A DNA stretch of 64,000 nucleotides from Candidatus Spechtbacteria bacterium. GTDB lineage: Bacteria > Patescibacteriota > Minisyncoccia > Spechtbacterales > JACPHP01. The position numbers and the translations under genes were made by a program. Each line of letters opens with the position of its first letter. The first letter of the stretch is position 1. Where the stretch lies: contig JACPHP010000012.1 of assembly GCA_016188605.1 (NCBI GenBank), positions 149 through 64,148 of the forward strand, in the 5' to 3' direction. Shown here piece by piece: positions 9,373 to 56,713 of this stretch. Under the pieces are notes generated by a model that was given only the letters and a program-made list of their open reading frames with translations, was not told where the DNA came from and searched no databases.

Positions 9373-9545
9373 TTGTATATTTCCCTCTGAATTTTTCTTG
9401 CGAAAAAAGAAAAGGGTTAGGCCCTTTACGATATTCGTTAAAATATCGCGAGGGAGTGACCCGTCCGAAGTTCCGAATAATCGGAACGTGGGGGGGTGAA
9501 ATCAAATGCTCATATGTGCACCAGATGAACATTTGATGCTGGCCA

Positions 9546-9593
9546 CCGGGCGTTTATACGCCACGCAGCTGTGCGTGGCGTATAAACGCCCGG
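9546..9593. repeat. Long near-perfect palindrome (21-bp arms, CCGGGCGTTTATACGCCACGC...).
   Basis: Seen directly. It lies in the 560-bp leader upstream of the giant surface-protein gene. Confidence 0.6.
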
Positions 9594-9690
9594 CGACCGT
9601 TTGATCCTCTAGTCAGTATTATTTATTTCTCTGGCTTGAGGCATTGAATCGCAGTCGACCATCTTTAGTTAAAGTACGCTTCGGTTTTGG

Positions 9691-9756
9691 GTCTCCCCAG
9701 CTAGATCCTGAACTGCGCCGTAATTACGGGTTTGTTCAGGACTAAGCTGGGGAGAC
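9691..9756. repeat. Long imperfect hairpin (about 23-bp arms) enclosing the perfect 12-nt palindrome CCGTAATTACGG.
   Basis: Seen directly. Confidence 0.55.
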
Positions 9757-9935
9757 AGCTCTTAATAAAGAAAAACCTATCCTCCTTGGTGCCAAGGCGG
9801 ATAATCCGTTCAATCGCTACCTTGCACTAAATAGGTGCGAAGCCCCAAAGGGGCAAGGCAGTGATTGAACGCTTATCCAATTATATCAAAGAACTGCGTA
9901 TGTCTAAATGTGGATAAGTTTCTTTGCTTATCGCG

Positions 9936-10712: not shown

Positions 10713-10746
10713 ACAAAACGTTACAATCTACCTACAGGAATCCATA

Positions 10747-10788
10747 GGAGGGTCGGTCCGTCCTGCACGCAGGACGGACCGACCCTCC
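10747..10788. repeat. Hairpin with 19-bp arms (GGAGGGTCGGTCCGTCCTG / CAGGACGGACCGACCCTCC) followed by TTTT. The same arms recur at 12497-12537.
   Basis: Seen directly. Confidence 0.65.
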
Positions 10789-10799
10789 TTTTGGTGTTA

Positions 10800-11375
10800 T
10801 CATTCTAGCTTCAACCTCTCACGAAGGGCATTCACACCCCTATGGGCAATCACCCGCACCGTGCCTTCGGGTTTTCCGACAATATCCGCAATATCGCTAA
10901 ACGGCAGGTCTTCCAAGTAATGCAGGGTAACAATTTCCGCCGTTTCTTCGCCGATTTCTGACAATGCCTGGCGTATACGCGCTATATCAAGAGAGTTTTC
11001 TACGTCTATGTTTATAGCATGCGCTTCGTCTATGCCGCCATGTGTTTCTGGGGCAGCCAACATATCTTCGTACGATACTGTGGGTCGCTGTTTGCGATAG
11101 TAGTCAATCAGGCAATTACGCGCTGTTTTATACAAAAACGCGCGAACGTTTTGAATGCCGCCTAGCGATGTGAGTACGGACGATTCCTGCGCGATAAAAA
11201 CGGCTTTATGCCCATTTTTAGATATCAGATAATTCCACATTCTAAGAAATACTTCCGAAGATAAATCCTGCGCAGTCTCCCTCGAATTTGTTTTCAAAAA
11301 CAGGAAACGAAAGATTTGATCGGCGTACTCGTCGTAAACGCGAGAAAAAAGTTGTTGAAATTGCCTATCTGTCAT
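10800..11375 (-). CDS. ECF-type RNA polymerase sigma factor (sigma-70 family regions 2 and 4).
   Basis: Region 2 is FLFLKTNSRETAQDLSSEVFLRMW. Region 4 is LPFSDIADIVGKPEGTVRVIAHRGVNALRERL. Confidence 0.85.
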   Translation of the reverse strand: MTDRQFQQLFSRVYDEYADQIFRFLFLKTNSRETAQDLSSEVFLRMWNYLISKNGHKAVFIAQESSVLTSLGGIQNVRAFLYKTARNCLIDYYRKQRPTVSYEDMLAAPETHGGIDEAHAINIDVENSLDIARIRQALSEIGEETAEIVTLHYLEDLPFSDIADIVGKPEGTVRVIAHRGVNALRERLKLE

Positions 11376-11380
11376 TCGTG

Positions 11381-11520
11381 ATTATAGACATTTAATGACA
11401 TTTACTGACATTTTATAATGCGATTATAGACATTTAATGACATTTTGTAGACATAGTTAATGACATTTACTGACATTTATATTTTAAGCAAAATGTCAGT
11501 AAATGTCATTAAATGTCTAT
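11381..11520. promoter_or_regulatory. Three copies of a 31-bp element (ATAGACATTTAATGACATTTACTGACATTTT): two direct (one interrupted) and one inverted. They abut the sigma factor start codon.
   Basis: Direct copies lie at 11385-11415 and 11428-11479; the inverted copy lies at 11490-11520. The recurring core is TGACATTTA. Confidence 0.5.
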
Positions 11521-12303: not shown

Positions 12304-12496
12304 ATAGCAAATAAGTGTCTATGGTCTATGGCTAGCCCGACCGAATACCAAAAAGTCCCCTTCTAATACAAGAGGACTATGAAACTATAGCACGAATACA
12401 GAAAAATACAAGCTTTCTATAACGTAACTGCTCATACCCTCTCATAAATTGGGGGGTGAGCAGTGACTTCTATAACTACTTCAGGACGGACTACTT

Positions 12497-12537
12497 CAGG
12501 ACGGACCGACCCTCCTGCGGAGGGTCGGTCCGTCCTG
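12497..12537. repeat. Second copy of the 19-bp-arm hairpin, preceded by a short direct repeat of CTTCAGGACGGA.
   Basis: Seen directly. Its arms are identical to those at 10747-10788. Confidence 0.65.
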
Positions 12538-12576
12538 AAGACCATATTAAACACATATTAAAACATTAGCTTATCG

Positions 12577-15195: not shown

Positions 15196-15325
15196 AGCTT
15201 GTTTTTAGCTTACATATAGGTGTTTGGTCTAAAAGGGCCAAACACCTATACATTGTGCTCCAAAAACAGGAAAAAGAAAAGACCCACTCCGCACAACTGC
15301 GAACCTAGTGGCGTGAGTGGGTTTT

Positions 15326-15373
15326 GCGAGCGAGGGGGATTTGCGCTTATAAGCGCAAATCCCCCTCGCTCGC
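15326..15373. repeat. Perfect 48-bp palindrome (GCGAGCGAGGGGGATTTGCGCTTA | TAAGCGCAAATCCCCCTCGCTCGC).
   Basis: Seen directly. It lies in the galU upstream region. Other hairpins sit nearby at 15215-15250 and 15403-15426. Confidence 0.7.
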
Positions 15374-30893: not shown

Positions 30894-31088
30894 CCCGTTA
30901 AGATAGGTTGCGTTTCCATGCGCGCATGAAAACGCAACCGTAGATATCGCGCGTAAAATTATTATTCAATACACACCTAGATTTCCCCCGCAGAGTTAAA
31001 AAAATATCTGCTGTCTCTGGCGGGATTCATCTCTTATATTATAAGCAATTAGTACTATCTTGGGTAATTTTAATAATATACTATGCAA

Positions 31089-31115
31089 TTAGCACTCAAA
31101 GGTCAAGAGTGCTAA
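31089..31115. promoter_or_regulatory. Perfect CIRCE operator (TTAGCACTC-N9-GAGTGCTAA; HrcA-type) embedded in a 55-bp perfect palindrome (31075-31129). It lies between the divergent clpB and CDC48-like AAA genes.
   Basis: The sequence is an exact consensus match. The extended palindrome adds TATACT -10-like hexamers on both strands. Confidence 0.75.
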
Positions 31116-31221
31116 TTGCATAGTATATTTAATCCGCTCATCTGATTGACAGTGTCTTTCTTTCTGATAAGCTAGCGGTAGAGTTTTTTAAAAATTATTT
31201 TAAGAAAGATGGGGGTGGAAA

Positions 31222-33033: not shown

Positions 33034-33040
33034 AAACGCA

Positions 33041-33072
33041 AAAATCCCACAACTAAGTTGTGGGATTTTCTT
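33041..33072 (+). terminator. Rho-independent terminator (AAAATCCCACAAC-TAA-GTTGTGGGATTTTC).
   Basis: Seen directly after the AAA ATPase stop. Confidence 0.75.
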
Positions 33073-38063: not shown

Positions 38064-38141
38064 CATTGAATAAAGAAAAAATCGCTGCGCGTTTGCGCAA
38101 CGATTTTTTTTTAAATGACGTAGCAAGATACAATAATAATC

Positions 38142-38684: not shown

Positions 38685-38734
38685 GCTTAATGCGTCAGCT
38701 TATTGCTGACGCATATTCATTTTCATACAATATA

Positions 38735-38776
38735 CAACAGAGAGGCGCGGCTAAATAGCCGCGCCTCTCTGTTGTA
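38735..38776. terminator. Strong bidirectional terminator (ACAACAGAGAGGCGCGGC-TAAATA-GCCGCGCCTCTCTGTTGT).
   Basis: Seen directly; 18-bp stem. Confidence 0.7.
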
Positions 38777-41208: not shown

Positions 41209-41227
41209 AATGAAATTTAATAAATCT

Positions 41228-41345
41228 CGGCCAGAGCAAGAAATACAACGTAGAGTTGCGTGCGTAAAGCACCGTGGGTGCCACGCACCTCTACGGTGGC
41301 AACCACGTTGCTTTACGCAAGAGAATGTATTTCTACGTTTAACAA
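41228..41345. other. Highly structured element of about 118 nt in the leader of the DUF1573 gene. It is a copy of the AGAAATACA-loop-TGTATTTCT element (also at 44335-44385) carrying an insertion of about 75 nt with nested helices.
   Basis: The shared flanks are GCCAGAGCAAGAAATACAAC ... AATGTATTTCTACGTTTAA. Within the insert, GCGTAAAGCA pairs with TGCTTTACGC, GTGCGT pairs with ACGCAC, and CGTGG pairs with CCACG. Confidence 0.3.
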
Positions 41346-42724: not shown

Positions 42725-43378
42725 TTGGCTAAATTGGCTACAATAGAAAAAATCGAACTCCTTGAAAATGCTTTATCTCGTTTTCGTCAGGCGCCAATGG
42801 AAGAATCCGGAGAAGAAAAAATATTGGCCTATCGAGATGCTGAAATGCGCCTTGCTGATTTCATGCCTAACGAGCTTAATCTAACATCTCTATATCTGCT
42901 GGAAGATCATATCGAATCACTAAAAAGGTTGAGGGCAGAATTTCTTGATAGATATCAAATCGATATACTGCGGTTATCATCGGTTCTCCATATTAAAACC
43001 GATGACGGCCTGCTAGTTGGGATGGCGCCGCCATTTGTTGAAATCTACGAGGAAACTGTTCGGATAGTCTCTCGCCCGGGAGACAGACGTCCGCCCGCGA
43101 CAGTTCTGCTTCAAATCCCGGTGCTAATAGATGGCATTCATCGCGCGTGGATCGCCAGAGAAGAGGGACTATCTCTTAGATGTATTGTGGTTAGTGGCGC
43201 GTTAAAAGCATATCCGCCTTATGCTTACCCCAATGACTGGTCGCAAGTACGGGTGTACAGCACTAAACCGGAAACCAAAAAGTTTTATCGCCGAGAGGAT
43301 GCGCATTCCTACATGGCTCCGCTTACGGTTCTGCGGCAAACCGGAGATGCTCCTCCGCCTCGAGAATGGGGTAGATAA
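42725..43378 (+). CDS. Hypothetical protein, possibly with a ParB/sulfiredoxin-like fold.
   Basis: SD GGAGG upstream. The segment IPVLIDGIHRAWIAREEG resembles the ParB N-terminal domain. Weak. Confidence 0.3.
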   Translation: MAKLATIEKIELLENALSRFRQAPMEESGEEKILAYRDAEMRLADFMPNELNLTSLYLLEDHIESLKRLRAEFLDRYQIDILRLSSVLHIKTDDGLLVGMAPPFVEIYEETVRIVSRPGDRRPPATVLLQIPVLIDGIHRAWIAREEGLSLRCIVVSGALKAYPPYAYPNDWSQVRVYSTKPETKKFYRREDAHSYMAPLTVLRQTGDAPPPREWGR

Positions 43379-43422
43379 AAAATCAAAGACCGCTTGCTTA
43401 GCGGTCTTTTCTATTACAAAAA

Positions 43423-43995
43423 TTATAGTGATTTTATTGTACTGATATAAAACGGCAGTTCTTCCCAAGAATGGATGCGGGGGTATTTACTGTGTGGAAA
43501 ATTGTCATGGGGATCAAAAAGAATGCGGCGCGCCACATTTGGCATCTGGTCGAGCACATTCTGCCTATCATCGATATAGACGGATACGCCTAGACGTTGC
43601 GCGACTAATTGCTTCTCTGCATCATCTCGCACAAAAAAGATATTTTCTTTACTTAGGGGAGGAATGATATTTTGCTCAATCCACTTCATGCCATATTCCG
43701 CCTCAACGCCGTTACCGCGGCGCGAGATAATGTATATAGGACCAAAAGCCGCCGCTAATTTTTCAATCGTCTCTTTGGCGCTGGGCATTACTGAAGCGCG
43801 TAAAGAATCTTCGCCATAAACCATAGCACCAATCTTTGTATAATCATTCTCAGGTATCTTTAATTTCATTATATCAGATACTGCCTCGCCCTCCGTTAAA
43901 GAGTGTCCGAGCTGCCTCGCCAGATCAATTTTAGTGCGAGTATGGTCGGCAATTGTGCCATCGAGGTCAGAGGCGATAATTAGGCGATGCGACAT
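43423..43995 (-). CDS. HAD-superfamily phosphatase (nucleotidase-like).
   Basis: Motif I is LIIASDLDGTIAD. Size is 190 aa. Confidence 0.65.
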   Translation of the reverse strand: MSHRLIIASDLDGTIADHTRTKIDLARQLGHSLTEGEAVSDIMKLKIPENDYTKIGAMVYGEDSLRASVMPSAKETIEKLAAAFGPIYIISRRGNGVEAEYGMKWIEQNIIPPLSKENIFFVRDDAEKQLVAQRLGVSVYIDDRQNVLDQMPNVARRILFDPHDNFPHSKYPRIHSWEELPFYISTIKSL

Positions 43996-44014
43996 ATTAA
44001 ATATTTATTTTGAC

Positions 44015-44300
44015 TTTATATAAGGTAACGCAGCCTGCGGGGCTACGCGATTTTGCCTTTATACAAATTGGTATAAGGTAGCCCAGCCACACAAACGTGT
44101 GCGGCTGGATGATTTTGCTTTTATACAAGGTAGCGCAACCCCGCCACGGTGGGGTTGCGCGATTTCGCTTAACGCAAATAGAATCAAGGGTAAAGTTGTT
44201 AACGCAGCGCTGCTGCGCTGCGCGATTTTGCCTTTATATAATACGGGTAATAACCCAACGTGTCCTACTTAACACGTTGGGTTATTACCCGTATATTAAA
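44015..44300. repeat. Tandem array of five hairpins with different stems (7 to 22 bp). Each is followed by the conserved tail GCGATTTTGCCTTTATA(C/T)AAGGTA.
   Basis: The units start near 44015, 44054, 44108, 44163 and 44226. Unit 5 has a perfect 22-bp stem (TACGGGTAATAACCCAACGTGT ... ACACGTTGGGTTATTACCCGTA). Confidence 0.6.
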
Positions 44301-44312
44301 TAAGAGCAAAAT

Positions 44313-44332
44313 TGGCTGCGGGACCTGGATTC
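44313..44332. repeat. 20-nt duplicate of the tRNA-Gln 3' end (TGGCTGCGGGACCTGGATTC), att-like.
   Basis: It is identical to 45902-45921 of the tRNA gene 1.57 kb away. It is directly followed by the GCCAGAGCAAGAAATACAAC element. Confidence 0.6.
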
Positions 44333-44573
44333 TCCGCCAGAGCAAGAAATACAACAAAATGTATTTCTACGTTTAAGCGGACTCGCCTTGGGCGAGGAAC
44401 CAAGATACCATAAAACCCTACGTATTTAGAACAAAGAAATTCTTCTTTGAGCTGGCTAGCTCGGTCTAGAACCTGGGCTTTGAGAGGGATTCTGGGGCTT
44501 TTTAGGGATGTCTTATCTACCCGTCTCGGTCAGGGTCATTATACTCGAAACTCTATAAATAATACTGATTTTG

Positions 44574-44834
44574 TTAACTTCTCTTTTTAATGAAGTCGGA
44601 GGCCGTCCCCAACAATTCTGCTCCAAAGCCCAATATTGCTCCTGATATTGCTCCTTTCCCAATAGTATACCAGTTAAATCCACCTCCCCGGAAAACAAAG
44701 AAGGTGGCGAGTATGAGCCCTACGATAGCGCCAATGGTTAAACCGCCCCAAACTGCATTCTTTTTTCGCCAGAAAACTACTACCAAAACAACTGTTATGG
44801 TTCCAAGAATTTTCCAGATATCAAGGTTTGCCAC
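44574..44834 (-). CDS. GlsB/YeaQ/YmgE-family small membrane protein.
   Basis: 86 aa with Gly-rich TM helices (GGLTIGAIVGLILATFFVFRGGGF). Confidence 0.45.
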   Translation of the reverse strand: MANLDIWKILGTITVVLVVVFWRKKNAVWGGLTIGAIVGLILATFFVFRGGGFNWYTIGKGAISGAILGFGAELLGTASDFIKKRS

Positions 44835-44899
44835 AATTATCTTTTCAAGAATTTTAGTTATGCGTCTCGGTCAAATTAAAGGCCTCTGTCTAATTTGTT

Positions 44900-45082
44900 T
44901 TAATCTCGTCTTGATTGTCCTAGGCCGTAAGCAAAAACGACAGGAAAGCTAATACCCCAAGCAATCCAAAAATATCTATATTCGTCAAAATCAAGTATGT
45001 TAAGTGTTGCTGCTAAAAGCGGAAGCCAAAGCCCACTAGTCCAATATAATAGTATCAATATTTCTTTTGTTTTATAATTCAT
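44900..45082 (-). CDS. Small membrane protein (60 aa).
   Basis: ORF only. Confidence 0.3.
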   Translation of the reverse strand: MNYKTKEILILLYWTSGLWLPLLAATLNILDFDEYRYFWIAWGISFPVVFAYGLGQSRRD

Positions 45083-45102
45083 TTCTCTCTTGCTATAAAA
45101 CT

Positions 45103-45546
45103 TTAATTAGACAATTTTTTGGTATTTTCCTGACCCACTTCGGGCGGCGGTTCAATACGACTCTTTTTTAACCAAAGAGTTAAATTCAACGCTGGCAACA
45201 ATAATGAAAGTATTGCTATAGAAAATAATGCAACCGGATATTTTATAGAACCATTGTTTGTCCAATTCAAGCCATACATAAAATAGTACGCAATTATAAC
45301 TAAGCAAGTTATTAACCATATCAATGCTTTGTCTTTCTTGGCAAATTCTTGATACTGGGCATTTTTAACCTTGTAAAAATGAACTTGCGCCATAATAAAA
45401 ACGTATATGGCCCATATTGCACCAATATCCGTTCGAAATACATTAAGAAGTCCGAATCCAACAAGGTAACTCATCCCTTGTAATTTTTGATTGTGCCAAA
45501 ACAATCCAGATCCAGGAAAAATCAAGTTTATTATTACAGAGATCAT
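45103..45546 (-). CDS. Hypothetical membrane protein (147 aa).
   Basis: ORF with four hydrophobic helices. Confidence 0.4.
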   Translation of the reverse strand: MISVIINLIFPGSGLFWHNQKLQGMSYLVGFGLLNVFRTDIGAIWAIYVFIMAQVHFYKVKNAQYQEFAKKDKALIWLITCLVIIAYYFMYGLNWTNNGSIKYPVALFSIAILSLLLPALNLTLWLKKSRIEPPPEVGQENTKKLSN

Positions 45547-45548
45547 AT

Positions 45549-45845
45549 CTATTTAGAAACAATTAATCCAATTATAGCTCCTATCGCTATAAGTAGGATA
45601 AAAAAGATGAATCTTTTCCACGAAGGATAATCACTGTATTCATCTTCAATATCCTTAACTAAAGAATTTGCAAAGTTGGAAACTTCCTCAACTCCCTTGT
45701 TTCGCGAAGCCGCATGAAGTCCCCGACTCATCTCTAGCCATGATTTAATCTTTCCTCTCAATCTATTTTCTTGATAATGCTGATAGCCAGTGAAGATCAA
45801 TGAAATAAGTGCAATTATTGTAGGTATTATAAATTCCATGTTCAT
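45549..45845 (-). CDS. Hypothetical membrane protein (98 aa).
   Basis: ORF only; 2 nt from the next gene. Confidence 0.4.
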   Translation of the reverse strand: MNMEFIIPTIIALISLIFTGYQHYQENRLRGKIKSWLEMSRGLHAASRNKGVEEVSNFANSLVKDIEDEYSDYPSWKRFIFFILLIAIGAIIGLIVSK

Positions 45846-45901
45846 AATTTAAACTACAAGTTATATATTATGCGCCTCGGTCACCTGACTTAGCATATGA
45901 C

Positions 45902-45975
45902 TGGCTGCGGGACCTGGATTCGAACCAAGATACTCGCCTCCAGGGGGCGATGTCCTACCGTTAGACGATCCCGCA
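45902..45975 (-). tRNA. tRNA-Gln (anticodon CTG) with encoded CCA. It has a U1:A72 pair and an unusual C at position 33.
   Basis: The cloverleaf was folded by hand: acceptor TGCGGGA/TCCCGCA, T-arm CTTGG-TTCGAAT-CCAGG, anticodon stem TCGCC/GGCGA with loop CCCTGGA. Confidence 0.65.
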
Positions 45976-45982
45976 AAGCAAA

Positions 45983-46013
45983 AATGAAAGCCTGCATACA
46001 GGCTTTCATTTTT
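45983..46013. terminator. Terminator after ftsX (AAATGAAAGCCTG-CATA-CAGGCTTTCATTTTTT).
   Basis: Seen directly. Confidence 0.7.
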
Positions 46014-46060: not shown

Positions 46061-47014
46061 TTACACATGCAAATACCTTCTTGTCGCAATAAAACTGCTA
46101 ATGATACCAAGGCTCATACCAATAAAAGGCAGTACAAATAAAAGCGAAAAAAAGTTAGCGCGATAATAAGCAAATAAATCAATTTCGGAAAAGACTGCGG
46201 AAAAATTGGGGGTCAACAGCCATGTCATCAGCAAAGATAATAACAATGTTATAATGCCCGCAAAAAGCCCGTAGAGCGCGCCTGAAACAATGAATGGGCC
46301 GCGAATATACCAGTTACCCGCTCCTACTAAACGCATGATACCAATCTCCTCTCGCGCGGAATAAATAGCCAGGCGTATGGTGTTAAATGTTACCAGCACC
46401 ACAAATGTTCCTAGCACTATGCTCATAAAAATACCAACACGCTCAATGCTGGAACTGATGGAAATAATTTTATCAATCACCTTTTGATTTTCACGATAGT
46501 TAATTTTATCAATATATTGACGATAACCAGAACCCTCTAAAAACGTAGCAATAGATTCAAACTGAGTCGCTTGGGACGCCTTGATGTTCAATGTTGCCTG
46601 CAAAGGATTTGAACCAAGCTCATTTAGCGAATCCATGAGCACGGCATTATCTTTATGTTTTTCTTTAAAAGTATCAATGGCCTGATCGCGCGAAATATAC
46701 TGCACGTCCCTAACCTCCGGGCGAGCCTCTAGCACGCTTTTTGCCTGTAATATATCGCCTTCCTTAGCGTCCGGCACAAAATACACACTCACGTCAACTT
46801 TCTGCTGGAGAGAGGAAATAAATGTTTCCGTCATAGAACGGCCGATCACTATAATAGCAATCATGGAAAGTGCCAAAATCATTATACCGATAGTGGCACT
46901 TGATACCCAGATGTTACGCCAAAAATTTAGCCAACCGTATTTTAATATTCTAGTGAAAGTATGCATGTGATTAGATTTTGCCACGCGCCGCAGCGCGTTC
47001 GCAAAATCAATCAT
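46061..47014 (-). CDS. ftsX: Cell-division ABC transporter permease FtsX.
   Basis: It has the FtsX topology and a conserved C-terminal four-TM region. Confidence 0.85.
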   Translation of the reverse strand: MIDFANALRRVAKSNHMHTFTRILKYGWLNFWRNIWVSSATIGIMILALSMIAIIVIGRSMTETFISSLQQKVDVSVYFVPDAKEGDILQAKSVLEARPEVRDVQYISRDQAIDTFKEKHKDNAVLMDSLNELGSNPLQATLNIKASQATQFESIATFLEGSGYRQYIDKINYRENQKVIDKIISISSSIERVGIFMSIVLGTFVVLVTFNTIRLAIYSAREEIGIMRLVGAGNWYIRGPFIVSGALYGLFAGIITLLLSLLMTWLLTPNFSAVFSEIDLFAYYRANFFSLLFVLPFIGMSLGIISSFIATRRYLHV

Positions 47015-47057
47015 CCAGTAAACTTGCTGAATACAGCAAGTTTACTGGATTCCTGTT

Positions 47058-47172
47058 ATAATTATCTCAAATGTCAAATCGCAAATCTCAAATCAAAATC
47101 TTAAATATAAAATCTTCGCTAGTAATTTTGAGATTTGAGTTTCAGTTTTGCGATTTTAGATTTGATTTTTGA
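47058..47172. repeat. Heptad-repeat palindromic element (copy A; CAAATCT-type arms) between ftsE and ftsX. It is preceded by a 15-bp-stem hairpin at 47017-47050.
   Basis: Its core TTTTGAGATTTGAGTTTCAGTTTTGCGATTTTAGATTTGATTTTTGA is almost identical to 47933-47978. Confidence 0.6.
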
Positions 47173-47870: not shown

Positions 47871-47985
47871 AATCTCAAATCTTAAATGGCAAATCTTAAA
47901 TCTACATCTCAAATCTAAAATCTTTGTCCGTAGTTTTGAGATTTGAGTTTCAATTTTGCGATTTTAGATTTGATTTTTGAGATTT
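47871..47985. repeat. Heptad-repeat palindromic element (copy B) between prfB and ftsE.
   Basis: It is about 95% identical to copy A across the roughly 60-bp core. Confidence 0.6.
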
Positions 47986-51700: not shown

Positions 51701-51867
51701 GAAAATTTTATTATCCAACAAGAGGGGAGAAAATAAATATATTGGTTCTTCCAAACTAGGGCAGATAAAAAATGGCACTGCGACAGTGGAGCGTAACCGA
51801 CCTCGGGGATCGCCCAAAGGGGCGATCCCCGAGGGGCAATCCCCAAAATTTTATACCCTTTACTTGT

Positions 51868-56432: not shown

Positions 56433-56677
56433 ACTAAAAAATGACGAGAATAAAAGTTTTTGATAGTGATATGAGTATATACTGAAAAATTTGATGACAC
56501 GAATATAAAAATGTGCTAAAGTCTATAAGTATGAACGTCACTGGCCACAAATTCCGTACTATAGCCAGGGTGGTGTGGATTTCTATAGTAATCCTTGTCA
56601 CCTTTAGCATGGTTGGATATCTTTTGATACCGCTATTCTAATAGTAGCGAAAACACACTAAAAATCAATCATCCTTA

Positions 56678-56705
56678 ACTAAATAACCTCGCATATGCGA
56701 GGTTA
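56678..56705. terminator. Terminator after lepA (AAATAACCTCGCATATGCGAGGTTATTT).
   Basis: Seen directly. Confidence 0.7.
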
Positions 56706-56713
56706 TTTAGTTT

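Follow-up and report, generated by a model that had tools for sequence, protein, structure and literature searches.

The window, that is, the whole 64-kb stretch of DNA that was analysed, contains a hairpin array at 44006-44312. A run of four direct units, each a hairpin plus a tail, leads into one long palindrome, and directly next to the array is an exact 20-nt copy of the 3' end of tRNA-Gln. The units are homologous, their stems have changed while staying paired, the array is confined to one locus of the DNA searched, and its tails resemble the terminator tails of the same genome. We believed, with the chances about evenly balanced, that the array reflects the minisatellite-like, lineage-specific multiplication of a module of the intrinsic-terminator type in what was ancestrally the 3' flank of tRNA-Gln.

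The first-pass annotation had described a dense series of hairpins with a shared AT-rich spacer sequence, ending at a duplicate of the tRNA-Gln 3' end, and both observations hold. The features are listed in Table 1. The unit length is irregular (43-63 bp), and the tails are spaced at 43, 62, 50, and 63 bp. All four complete units have the same direct orientation and point rightward on the + strand; the last tail alone is inverted. Compared with shuffled sequences, the fold of the 340-nt region had a z-score of -12.6 on the + strand and -12.7 on the - strand. An assembly artefact was excluded because independent Logan assemblies (L001 and L003) carry the identical array sequence. The strain occurs in metagenomes such as SRR12113428, SRR12113418, and SRR12113383. 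Each hairpin had also been said to be followed by the same tail. This is correct for h1, h2, and h4; the tail after h3 is degenerate and reads GATTTCGCTTAACGCAAAT...AAGGGTA, and h5 has only an inverted copy. Tail copy U0 precedes h1 and lies directly upstream of the NT5C/HAD start codon, on the opposite strand.

The strength of the hairpins was calculated for both strands. h1 is weak on the + strand, with two C.A mismatches, and forms 8 bp including two G.U pairs on the - strand. Its energy is -8.6 kcal/mol on + and -12.6 on -, and its z-score of -0.29 is at the level of shuffled sequence. h2 is fairly strong (-17.2 kcal/mol on +, z -3.0, 3 of 200 shuffles as good; -20.7 on -), and h4 is moderate (-16.8 kcal/mol, z -1.7). 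Both h3 (-25.9 kcal/mol, z -5.0) and h5 (-39 to -46 kcal/mol, z -13) are strong, with no shuffle as good. The tail U1 has a 10-nt internal expansion that makes its own AT-rich mini-hairpin (CCTTTATAC/GTATAAGG). U4 is also the outer left arm of the long terminal palindrome, which covers 44224-44312 through the inverted tail after h5.

Table 1. Features of the array and its surroundings, in window positions.
Feature	Position	Strand	Sequence or remark
NT5C/HAD-type 5'-nucleotidase gene	43423-43995	-	PF06941, 4.3e-09; array directly upstream of start codon
Tail copy U0	44006-44027	+	TATTTTGACTTTATATAAGGTA; 3 mismatches to consensus; repeat family D2
Hairpin h1	44028-44048	+	ACGCAGCC-TGCGG-GGCTACGC
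Tail U1	44049-44080	+	Fold z -2.76
Hairpin h2	44081-44110	+	GCCCAGCCACAC-AAAC-GTGTGCGGCTGGAT
Tail U2	44111-44132	+	GATTTTGCTTTTATACAAGGTA; nearest copy to consensus, 1 mismatch
Hairpin h3	44133-44160	+	GCGCAACCCCGCC-AC-GGTGGGGTTGCGC; 12 bp
Tail U3, degenerate	44161-44192	+	GATTTCGCTTAACGCAAATAGAATCAAGGGTA
Hairpin h4	44193-44223 (core 44203-44222)	+	CGCAGCGC-TGCT-GCGCTGCG
Tail U4	44224-44249	+	GATTTTGCCTTTATATAATACGGGTA; inverted repeat I2
Hairpin h5	44241-44294	no strand	Perfect 23-bp inverted repeat (I1), 8-nt loop
Inverted tail copy U5'	44286-44312	-	ATTTTGCTCTTATTTAATATACGGGTA read on -; inverted repeats I2, I4, I6, I10
Exact 20-nt tRNA-Gln 3'-end duplicate, att-type direct repeat	44313-44332	-	GAATCCAGGTCCCGCAGCCA; gene copy 45902-45921(-)
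Further 12 nt of tRNA-Gln	44397-44408	-	GTATCTTGGTTC; score 24 vs shuffles 14.8 +/- 2.4
tRNA-Gln(CUG), intact gene	45902-45975	-	Rfam gathering-level match

The stems had been taken for unrelated palindromes, and the comparison of the units contradicts this. h1 plus U1 and h4 plus U4 are 89.7% identical over 39 nt (44026-44063 and 44200-44238). MAFFT puts all units on one common frame, and all five hairpins have the stem base TARCGCARCC / GGYTGCGCGA in common. The repeat families D1 and D2 extend from the tail into the stem arms, and the repeat copies are 63-88% identical. D1/D2, the MAFFT frame, and the h1/h4 match indicate that the array consists of head-to-tail copies of one homologous unit, as in a minisatellite. 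Four of the ten basal stem pairs were changed on both sides, that is, in a compensatory way. The covariation score was 0.40 compared with 0.18 in shuffles, and it was reached by none of 500 shuffles; the paired cells amounted to 84% against 18-32% when the partners were slid. The array was not called by Tandem Repeats Finder because the units vary in length and are less than about 70% alike, and the tandem-repeat description therefore rests on manual and model-based alignment. For genome scans, this is a caution that seemingly unrelated hairpins can be homologous at the stem base and that a shared AT-rich tail may be merely the local style of terminator U-tracts.

Such an array could be a functionless by-product of replication slippage, or of unequal exchange, at a tRNA flank rich in hairpins and prone to recombination. 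Its perfect stems would then be upheld by hairpin-templated (quasi-palindrome) correction instead of selection. We considered this neutral origin rather unlikely. It agrees with the strictly local and lineage-specific occurrence of the array, the irregular unit lengths, the decayed tail U3, the weak hairpin h1, and the small insertions and duplications around the array. Many other long perfect palindromes in the genome also suggest a mutational bias to make and keep palindromes. However, about 300 nt of useless DNA is unlikely to persist long in a compact CPR genome, the pairing survives four double changes, and the terminator-like polarity is the same in all tails.

The hairpins had been read either as plus-strand intrinsic terminators or as a REP/BIME-like cluster. 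The terminator-like look was retained, with GC-rich stems followed by GAUUUUGCCUUUAU, and the REP/BIME alternative was dropped for the reasons given below. The tail start GAUUUUGC matches the U-tracts of the ordinary terminators of this genome. Its gene-end terminators have the same tail style, ...AUUUU(U)GC, for example at 45986-46007(-), 33040-33070(-), and 38082-38103(-). The terminators compared read GGCTTTC followed by ATTTTTGCTTTG after ftsX, GGGATTTTT followed by GCGTTTC at 33040-33070(-), and GCGCAGCGA followed by TTTTTTCTTTATT at 38082-38103(-). Stable GC-rich RNA hairpins are present, h1 being the weak one. On the + strand, the tail GAUUUUGCCUUUAU has 4 U in the first 6 nt past a 2-nt spacer, and this U-tract is interrupted. 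A simple consensus terminator scan was passed on the + strand only by h3, and on the - strand by h5. A co-oriented upstream transcription unit is absent. The neighbouring NT5C/HAD gene is on the - strand, and therefore the terminators would act only on transcripts that are antisense or spurious; the + strand gene closest to the array (42725-43378) is served by its own terminator at 43385-43409. Tail conservation runs about 14 nt beyond any U-tract, and termination alone does not account for that.

The - strand offers another reading, in which the NT5C/HAD mRNA starts inside h5 and runs through h4 to h1 as a structured 5' leader. The hairpins would then be mRNA stabilisers or regulatory structures instead of terminators. 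Promoter-like hexamers lie inside h5 on both strands (44269-44297 on +, 44266-44238 on -), and the - strand pair, AGGACA-17-TATTAT, faces the array and the gene. There is no U-tract after h1 to h4 on this strand, so that transcription should read through. For h1, h2, h4, and h5, the - strand fold is the better one because mismatches turn into G.U pairs, and the hairpin energies add up to -113.4 kcal/mol on - and -107.9 on +. By manual count, 5 non-Watson-Crick positions favour - and 2 favour +. This asymmetry slightly favours folding of the - strand RNA and is not significant; h3 folds better on +. Against the leader, the promoter match covers 9 of 12 positions, and the promoter scan gave 10 sites compared with 9.1 expected from shuffles. 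Furthermore, the contigs of relatives that include the upstream flank of an NT5C-like gene (L146-L150) show no such leader, and that of the closest ortholog (L154) is cut off inside the gene. We judged the leader improbable. A sigma-70 promoter within the tail was also rejected: no acceptable -35/-10 pair was found on either strand, and promoter-like sites were no commoner than in shuffles.

A genome-wide family defined by a TTTATAC-containing tail had been proposed, together with a search for the tail consensus. The 22-nt tail GATTTTGCCTTTATACAAGGTA with at most 3 mismatches gave 3 matches in the window, all inside the array (0.00 expected), and the 12-nt tail core gave 4 matches in the array compared with 0.79 expected in the whole window. 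The 15-nt tail start had no convincing match outside the array in the window, and TTTATAC was not enriched (16 versus 10.7 expected). With filters off, a covariance model built on the unit recovered no window sequence beyond the four units it was trained on, and it found nothing in 97 kb from 14 loci of relatives. Public collections were scanned with exact patterns only. In IMG/VR, a 16-base tail pattern gave at least 120 single matches, none with an upstream GC-rich hairpin or the GGTA extension, and a 17-base pattern gave 2 chance matches. A gapped tail-hairpin-tail pattern gave 4 chance matches in the JGI metagenomes, and a 21-base degenerate tail gave 10 in unrelated phyla among the GTDB genomes; the source genome is absent from both collections. 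The chance matches in the three collections were without hairpins. The palindromes at 15326-15373 and 9541-9598 (the latter first reported from 9546), which had been named as kin of the array tail, have only short AT-rich strings in common with it, were missed by the pattern search and the model, and are unrelated. The tail did not recur in the window, the loci of relatives, or the three public collections, and the family claim fails within the DNA searched. As far as testable here, the array is a local, lineage-specific repeat without membership in a genome-wide family.

The same searches bear on the REP/BIME suggestion. In this reading, as it was worked out here, the hairpins would be REP-type elements with a 5' GTAG foot that are mobilised or maintained by a REP-associated tyrosine transposase (RAYT). 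The window encodes a RAYT-like protein at 21560-22303(-), which matches Pfam Y1_Tnp (9e-06) and NCBIfam REP_Tyr_transpos (2.9e-10) and has HUH and YxHxNP motifs. On the + strand, h2 and h3 begin with GTAG and h1 and h5 with GTAA; the 5' foot of h4 reads GTTAAC. The hairpin elements at 22351-22392 and a 74-nt insert at 41250-41323 both begin with ACAAC-GTAGA. However, neither the pattern search nor the covariance model found dispersed unit copies in the 64 kb, and the units are all direct instead of alternating. The hairpins on either side of the RAYT-like gene (GGATATCCCGGCTATCC... and TAGATTCGCTAGGGA...) are unrelated in sequence, the gene's NCBIfam score of 40 bits is below the family cut-off of 80 bits, and TACAASGTAG is not significantly enriched (7 versus 3.7 expected). 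We therefore considered a REP/BIME-like cluster very unlikely.

A guide-RNA array, of the TIGR-Tas stem-loop or CRISPR-like type, appeared extremely unlikely. TIGR-Tas stem-loop arrays occur in CPR bacteria as tandem variable palindromes, sometimes beside a parB-like gene (PMC12045711; bioRxiv 10.64898/2026.09.09.750476). The host studied here is a CPR bacterium, its tandem palindromes differ in sequence, and a ParB-fold gene (PF24392) lies 0.6 kb from the array. In a TIGR unit, stem arms surround two variable spacers of 8-12 nt bounded by box C (3 nt) and box D (2 nt) (bioRxiv 10.64898/2026.09.09.750476), whereas the arms here enclose only 2-8 nt and the sequence between the hairpins is constant. 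A scan by the published rule (box C CNA or CTT, 9 nt, box D YG, twice; gap <=15 nt, stem >=7 bp; bioRxiv 10.64898/2026.09.09.750476) found 0 units in the window and 0-5 in shuffles. Pfam searches, which have limited sensitivity to very divergent Tas proteins, found no Nop-domain protein in 39 ORFs (1-53 kb; six large ORFs beyond 53 kb left out). When two neighbouring ORFs of unknown function were compared with PDB sequences, no Tas protein was matched. The gene for ParB-CE is conserved in CPR bacteria and is linked to NT5C and dUTPase genes in relatives, and no array was seen beside their copies.

Several other identities were rejected. An Rfam family was not recognised: the long palindrome gave only chance matches resembling miRNA precursors, far under the gathering scores, and the gathering level was reached only by three tRNAs. 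CRISPR arrays have near-identical direct repeats of at least 23 nt with unique non-palindromic spacers and usually lie near cas genes. Here, the repeats are too degenerate, the variable parts are palindromic, and no cas domains were found in the 39 ORFs (1-53 kb). For integron attC sites (CALIN), the stem bases TARCGCARCC/GGYTGCGC are not the R''/R' boxes RYYYAAC...GTTRRRY, and no integrase was found within 31-53 kb. The GC skew does not turn and the tails are irregularly spaced, which speaks against a replication origin or iterons.

The right end of the array is a tRNA-Gln junction. The 12-mer GTATCTTGGTTC corresponds to the bases that precede the 20-mer in the tRNA-Gln gene, and a 64-nt insert separates the 12-mer and the 20-mer at the junction. 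U5' represents the 3' trailer that natively belongs to the displaced end of tRNA-Gln. The direct repeat of the tRNA 3' end brackets an insert at 44333-45901, as in tRNA-targeted islands. This 1.57-kb insert encodes only four small predicted membrane proteins without Pfam matches, and an integrase was not found in it. A second repeat of 25 + 19 nt is common to the junction and 41225-41342. The junction appears to be recombination-prone, with what look like small insertion scars. If the sequence was inserted, the empty site would be an intact tRNA-Gln joined directly to ATTTTGCTCTTATT....

Given this junction, we also weighed a relic of recombination sites, in which the tails are arm-type binding sites or the units are scars of serial site-specific recombination at tRNA-Gln. 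The array lies at the att-type junction, and a tail copy also comes after the tRNA fragment. Taken together, the tail end and the 5' stem arm (AAGGTAGCGCAGCC) are similar to the 3' end of tRNA-Gln (CAGGTCCCGCAGCC), GGTCCCGCAGCC is a 2-mismatch match to GGTAGCGCAGCC at both tRNA-end copies, and the inverted repeats I11 and I12 connect the h1/h2 arms with the tRNA fragment. However, the likeness covers 10 of 12 nt in a GC-rich stem, and GGTAGCGCAGCC with at most 2 mismatches matched nothing in the window besides the array, both ends of tRNA-Gln duplicated here, and chance sites (8 matches versus 3.9 expected). No integrase or recombinase gene was found within 31-53 kb, and the units run opposite to the tRNA fragment, which tandem att scars would not do. 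Such a relic is hardly to be expected.

In relatives, ftsX is followed by tRNA-Gln, and this arrangement is ancestral. None of their ftsX neighbourhoods has the array. The L141 and L143 contigs extend beyond the tRNA into ordinary sequence, which in L141 includes a single hairpin; the L139 contig stops within the tRNA gene. L141 has an opposite-strand gene that runs toward tRNA-Gln, and this convergence would require + oriented terminators at exactly the array position. No close full-length homologue of the NT5C/HAD protein is on record; the ParB-CE neighbourhoods led to an ortholog that is 71% identical (L154), whose contig ends inside the gene.

The preferred terminator-module reading can be put as follows. 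The array would be a short degenerate tandem repeat, each unit of which looks like an intrinsic terminator and consists of a GC-rich hairpin with the U-rich tail GAUUUUGCCUUUAU... on its 3' side. One ancestral module may stand behind all units, and it was probably derived from the flank of the long palindrome h5. h5 would sit immediately 3' of the original tRNA-Gln end and was probably the terminator of that gene on the - strand. After duplication, the stems would have diverged through compensatory paired changes and remodelling of the tips, and the tails would have stayed similar. The 1.57-kb insertion, bracketed by the tRNA 3'-end repeats, would later have parted the array from the tRNA-Gln gene. 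Its function, if any, is most likely that of a one-way terminator stack, or insulator, against + strand transcription, which would be antisense to NT5C/HAD and convergent on tRNA-Gln. If this is true, the array is a small example of local amplification of a terminator-type hairpin and shows stems drifting in sequence yet staying paired, in a compact CPR genome with a tRNA flank clearly targeted by insertions.

A more speculative reading, which we held to be quite improbable, is that the array is a lineage-specific RNA locus of an undescribed kind or the physical record of serial recombination at a tRNA-Gln attachment site. As an RNA locus, its units could give small hairpin RNAs that differ at the stem tip and have one 3' tail in common. 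By loose analogy with TIGR arrays, which were long overlooked in CPR bacteria and discovered recently, these RNAs could serve as decoys or ligands for a protein that binds the tail or the hairpin. The locus would gain importance only if other contigs of the genome revealed a dispersed family, or transcripts revealed discrete small RNAs.

Among known systems, TIGR-Tas arrays (Faure et al. 2025, PMC12045711) are similar in their tandem palindromes that differ between units, the CPR host, and the ParB-fold gene nearby. The array differs from them in having no variable spacer pair or box C/D nucleotides and no Tas (Nop-domain) gene among the 39 ORFs at 1-53 kb, and its inter-hairpin sequence is constant, whereas the TIGR linker is variable. 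Proteobacterial REP/BIME clusters likewise have clustered extragenic palindromes with conserved linkers; the GTA[AG] 5' foot of h1, h2, h3, and h5 and the RAYT-like gene in the window are further points of likeness. Unlike them, the array has no dispersed family, alternation, or conserved REP stem consensus, and the hairpins of the RAYT-like gene are different. As where genomic islands integrate into tRNA genes, the 1.57-kb insert is bracketed by a duplicate of the tRNA-Gln 3' end, which is exact over 20 nt (probably 32 nt in all, split). However, that insert has no integrase, and the array lies outside it in the ancestral flank and is not built of tRNA-end repeats. With intrinsic terminators, the array has in common a GC-rich hairpin, a U-rich though interrupted tract within 2 nt, stems that are free to vary as long as pairing is kept, and tails like those at the gene ends of its own genome. 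It differs in having four to five of them in a row by local duplication, no co-oriented upstream gene, and a conserved tail of about 22 nt that is longer than a U-tract. Intergenic minisatellites or VNTRs, such as the mycobacterial MIRUs, also occupy an intergenic spacer with repeats of about 40-60 bp in head-to-tail order, whose units diverge in sequence and length and are confined to one locus. Compared with these, the units of the array are too diverged for Tandem Repeats Finder, and they contain strong hairpins in which compensatory changes keep the arms paired.

The window covers nearly all of a contig of 64.9 kb from Candidatus Spechtbacteria, an uncultured bacterium of the CPR/Patescibacteria, and the protein adjoining the array is HYV65_02475 in the NCBI records of Candidatus Spechtbacteria. 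The array consists of five hairpins (h1-h5, rising along the + strand) and the AT-rich tail shared between them; one hairpin with its tail is a unit. Read on the - strand, the gene order is ftsE, ftsX, tRNA-Gln(CUG), four small membrane-protein ORFs, a tRNA-Gln 3'-end fragment, the array and an NT5C/HAD-type nucleotidase gene; beyond it are a ParB-CE gene in convergent orientation and genes for an AdoMet decarboxylase and a small membrane protein.

Coordinates of genes, terminators and long intergenic palindromes
Feature	Position	Strand	Sequence
Array	44006-44312		
NT5C/HAD-type nucleotidase gene	43423-43995	-	
tRNA-Gln(CUG)	45902-45975	-	
ftsX	46061-47014	-	
ftsX terminator			GGCTTTC, ATTTTTGCTTTG
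Gene-end terminator	33040-33070	-	
Gene-end terminator	15283-15321	+	
Gene-end terminator	38082-38103	-	GCGCAGCGA, TTTTTTCTTTATT
Long palindrome	9541-9598		
Long palindrome	15326-15373		
Long palindrome	31075-31129		
Long palindrome	38733-38776		
Long palindrome	56677-56712		
Long palindrome	47013-47050		
Long palindrome	51801-51834		

The array observation was real. In the window, a pattern search for the 22-nt tail (≤3 mismatches) gave three matches, all within the array, where none was expected, and the 12-nt core had four array matches against 0.79 expected window-wide. The folding z of the 340-nt region was about -12.6 on each strand compared with shuffles, and the array sequence was found unchanged in independent Logan assemblies. 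The anatomy in the first-pass annotation was largely right. The array ends at a tRNA-Gln 3'-end duplicate, exact over 20 nt. That every hairpin carries the tail held in part: it is well preserved before h1 and after h1, h2 and h4, degenerate after h3, and present only as an inverted copy after h5. Because of this inversion, 44224-44312 is a single 89-nt palindrome with a perfect 23-bp core. Against shuffles, h3 and h5 were strong, h2 fairly strong (z -3.0) and h4 moderate, and h1 folded no better than shuffled sequence.

The stems had been described as unrelated, which was wrong. The h1 and h4 units are 89.7% identical over 39 nt, the mechanically detected direct-repeat families D1 and D2 extend past both ends of the tail into the stem arms, and MAFFT placed all units in a single frame. 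In a register set by hand from the stem base, the arms of the five stems read TA[A/G]C[G/C]CA[A/G]C[C/G] plus complement. Four of the ten stem pairs were changed on both sides (G-C to C-G, G-C to A-U, C-G to G-C), and 84% of cells were paired vs 18-32% with partners slid. The covariation score was reached by 0 of 500 shuffles. The unit identity, common frame and paired changes indicate that a single module, repeated in tandem and since diverged, makes up the array. The stem tips appear to have been remodelled with pairing retained, either through selection or through hairpin-templated correction.

In the + orientation, each array stem is followed by GAUUUUGCCUUUAU, much like the terminators that lie at actual gene ends of the genome (stem, 4-5 U, G(C)). 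In the - orientation, the hairpins are followed by UACCUUGUAUAAA, with no U-tract. A simple consensus terminator scan flagged h3 on + and h5 on -. Because of the U-rich + tails, the terminator style of the genome and the scan flags, h1-h4 can reasonably be read as putative + oriented terminator-like modules, and we read h5 as the putative original tRNA-Gln terminator. The proposed resemblance to intrinsic terminators is reasonable, and termination itself is putative; the weak point of the terminator reading is that the array currently has no + strand gene leading into it. A convergent gene, as at the same position in relatives' loci L141 and L144, suggests how a past need for + terminators might be explained. 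On -, the mismatches of h1, h2 and h4 turn into G.U pairs, as does one in h3 on +; the summed hairpin energies were -113.4 kcal/mol on - vs -107.9 on +. The slightly better - folding and a promoter-like site inside h5 would fit an NT5C/HAD mRNA that starts at that site and has the array as its structured 5' leader. We consider this quite unlikely, and the asymmetry is too weak to decide for one strand as functional RNA. The array is best described as a genuine tandem repeat, degenerate and amplified locally, of a hairpin module that resembles an intrinsic terminator, lying in the ancestral tRNA-Gln 3' flank.

Three Spechtbacterales relatives (L139, L141, L143) keep the order ftsX then tRNA-Gln. 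The L139 contig stops inside the tRNA gene, so the downstream comparison covers L141 and L143, where ordinary sequence follows, with one hairpin in L141; there an opposite-strand gene converges on tRNA-Gln. In the closest ftsX relative (L138, 89% identity), the genes after ftsX differ. No array was seen at the ParB-CE loci of relatives, and the L154 contig ends inside its NT5C/HAD ortholog (71% identical). The absence at relatives' loci argues that the array is lineage-specific. ParB-CE (PF24392), a conserved CPR gene, usually adjoins an NT5C-like nucleotidase gene, often with a dUTPase or dCTP deaminase gene (L146-L151, L154). This repeated adjacency suggests a role in nucleotide metabolism, not partitioning.

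A 1.57-kb segment (44333-45901) separates tRNA-Gln from its duplicate, with the tRNA-Gln 3' end directly repeated on either side. Its GC is 0.39 vs about 0.44-0.45 in most of the window. The ORFs encode four small predicted membrane proteins (98, 147, 60 and 86 aa) without Pfam matches, and no integrase is among them. The segment has the look of an insertion in tRNA-Gln that has decayed or is non-autonomous. In full, the duplicate probably measures 32 nt; the 12 nt preceding the 20-mer in the tRNA-Gln gene occur at 44397-44408, separated from the 20-mer by a 64-nt insert. This insert has 19 + 25 nt in common with 41225-41342, just upstream of a DUF1573 gene. The common pieces (- strand) are GTTGTATTTCTTGCTCTGGC[C/G]GAGA (25 nt) and TTAAACGTAGAAATACATT (19 nt). 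They lie 2 nt apart at 44331-44376, inside the split duplicate, and at 41225-41342 a GC-rich 74-nt hairpin element (41250-41323) comes between them, inserted in an AT-rich hairpin loop. This arrangement suggests a small repeated element with a palindromic insertion. From the split duplicate and the hairpin element, small palindromic insertions appear to be a recurrent feature of this genome, with the tRNA-Gln flank as a hot spot.

A genome-wide family defined by a TTTATAC tail had been proposed; it was unsupported within the window, 97 kb of related loci and three collections searched by exact pattern. With every filter switched off, the unit covariance model recovered only its four training units in the window; the next matches (E at least 0.03) were the array reverse strand or an ordinary terminator. 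The model found nothing in the 97 kb. In the window, the 15-nt tail start had no convincing match beyond the array, and TTTATAC was not enriched (16 found vs 10.7 expected). IMG/VR, JGI metagenomes and GTDB species genomes gave chance matches only, all without a hairpin; the JGI and GTDB collections exclude the source genome, within which the scans cover the window only. A similar tail had also been noted in the palindrome at 15326-15373, and a supposedly related sequence in the arms of that at 9546-9593. Neither the former nor 9541-9598 was detected by the tail search or the model, and both belong to a wider group of intergenic palindromes of this genome that are long and perfect, none with the tail. 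The window is unusually rich in such palindromes, perfect or near-perfect (arms 15-27 nt), mostly directly after gene ends and without U-tracts.

Other repeats were also observed. Two perfect palindromes, 10746-10789 and 12494-12540 (21-bp and 22-bp arms), have a common 20-nt sequence (AGGACGGACCGACCCTCC...) in opposite arm order, and between them lie a sigma-70-family gene (10800-11375) and an ORF of 216 aa; the two palindromes seem to form a second, distinct palindromic repeat family. Upstream of this gene, 11376-11520 (-) holds a duplicated element, AATGTCATTAAATGTCTATAATC, and related ATGTCA-containing repeats, including a 22-bp perfect inverted repeat (11457-11512), and resembles a promoter or operator region that has been duplicated. 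AAATCTN / GATTTGA repeats with a 7-8-nt period make up two satellite-like stretches, one between ftsE and ftsX (47082-47170) and one upstream of ftsE (47871-47984); the latter forms 53-nt imperfect inverted arms. A 35-nt near-palindrome, GATTTTGCCACGCGC-CGCA-GCGCGTTCGCAAAATC (46974-47008), directly before the ftsX start codon (46966), opens with the first 9-mer of the array tail (GATTTTGCC) and closes with its complement. GATTTTGC was not significantly enriched in the window (10 found vs 6.3 expected). The gene-free 560-nt stretch 9373-9935 has several strong hairpins; Rfam gave nothing at gathering level there, and no tmRNA was called.

CRISPR, integron attC, iteron/origin and sigma-70 promoter readings of the array all failed. 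The suggested REP/BIME-like cluster finds a likeness in the GTAG start of some array hairpins and in a RAYT-like Y1 transposase gene in the window. However, dispersed copies are absent from the window, the units are in direct, not alternating, orientation, and different hairpins flank the RAYT-like gene. This gene (21560-22303, -) is a 247-aa ORF with an IS200-like Y1 transposase domain and visible HUH (HFHFI) and YVHTNP motifs; in NCBIfam it matches REP-associated tyrosine transposase best (40 bits, under the 80-bit cut-off). The 21-mer GGATATCCCGGCTATCCTCTG occurs inside it (22076-22096) and just downstream (21529-21549), and a GTAG-footed hairpin lies upstream (22351-22392). A TIGR-Tas array was rejected, as the spacers with box C/D and the Nop-domain Tas gene are both absent (39 ORFs scanned, 1-53 kb). 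In a TIGR-Tas system, the stem arms must enclose two variable spacers with box C/D nucleotides, and a Tas gene with a Nop domain is required; its stem-loop arrays, which occur in CPR bacteria, consist of tandem palindromes that differ from one another, in some cases accompanied by a parB-like gene (PMC12045711; bioRxiv 10.64898/2026.09.09.750476).
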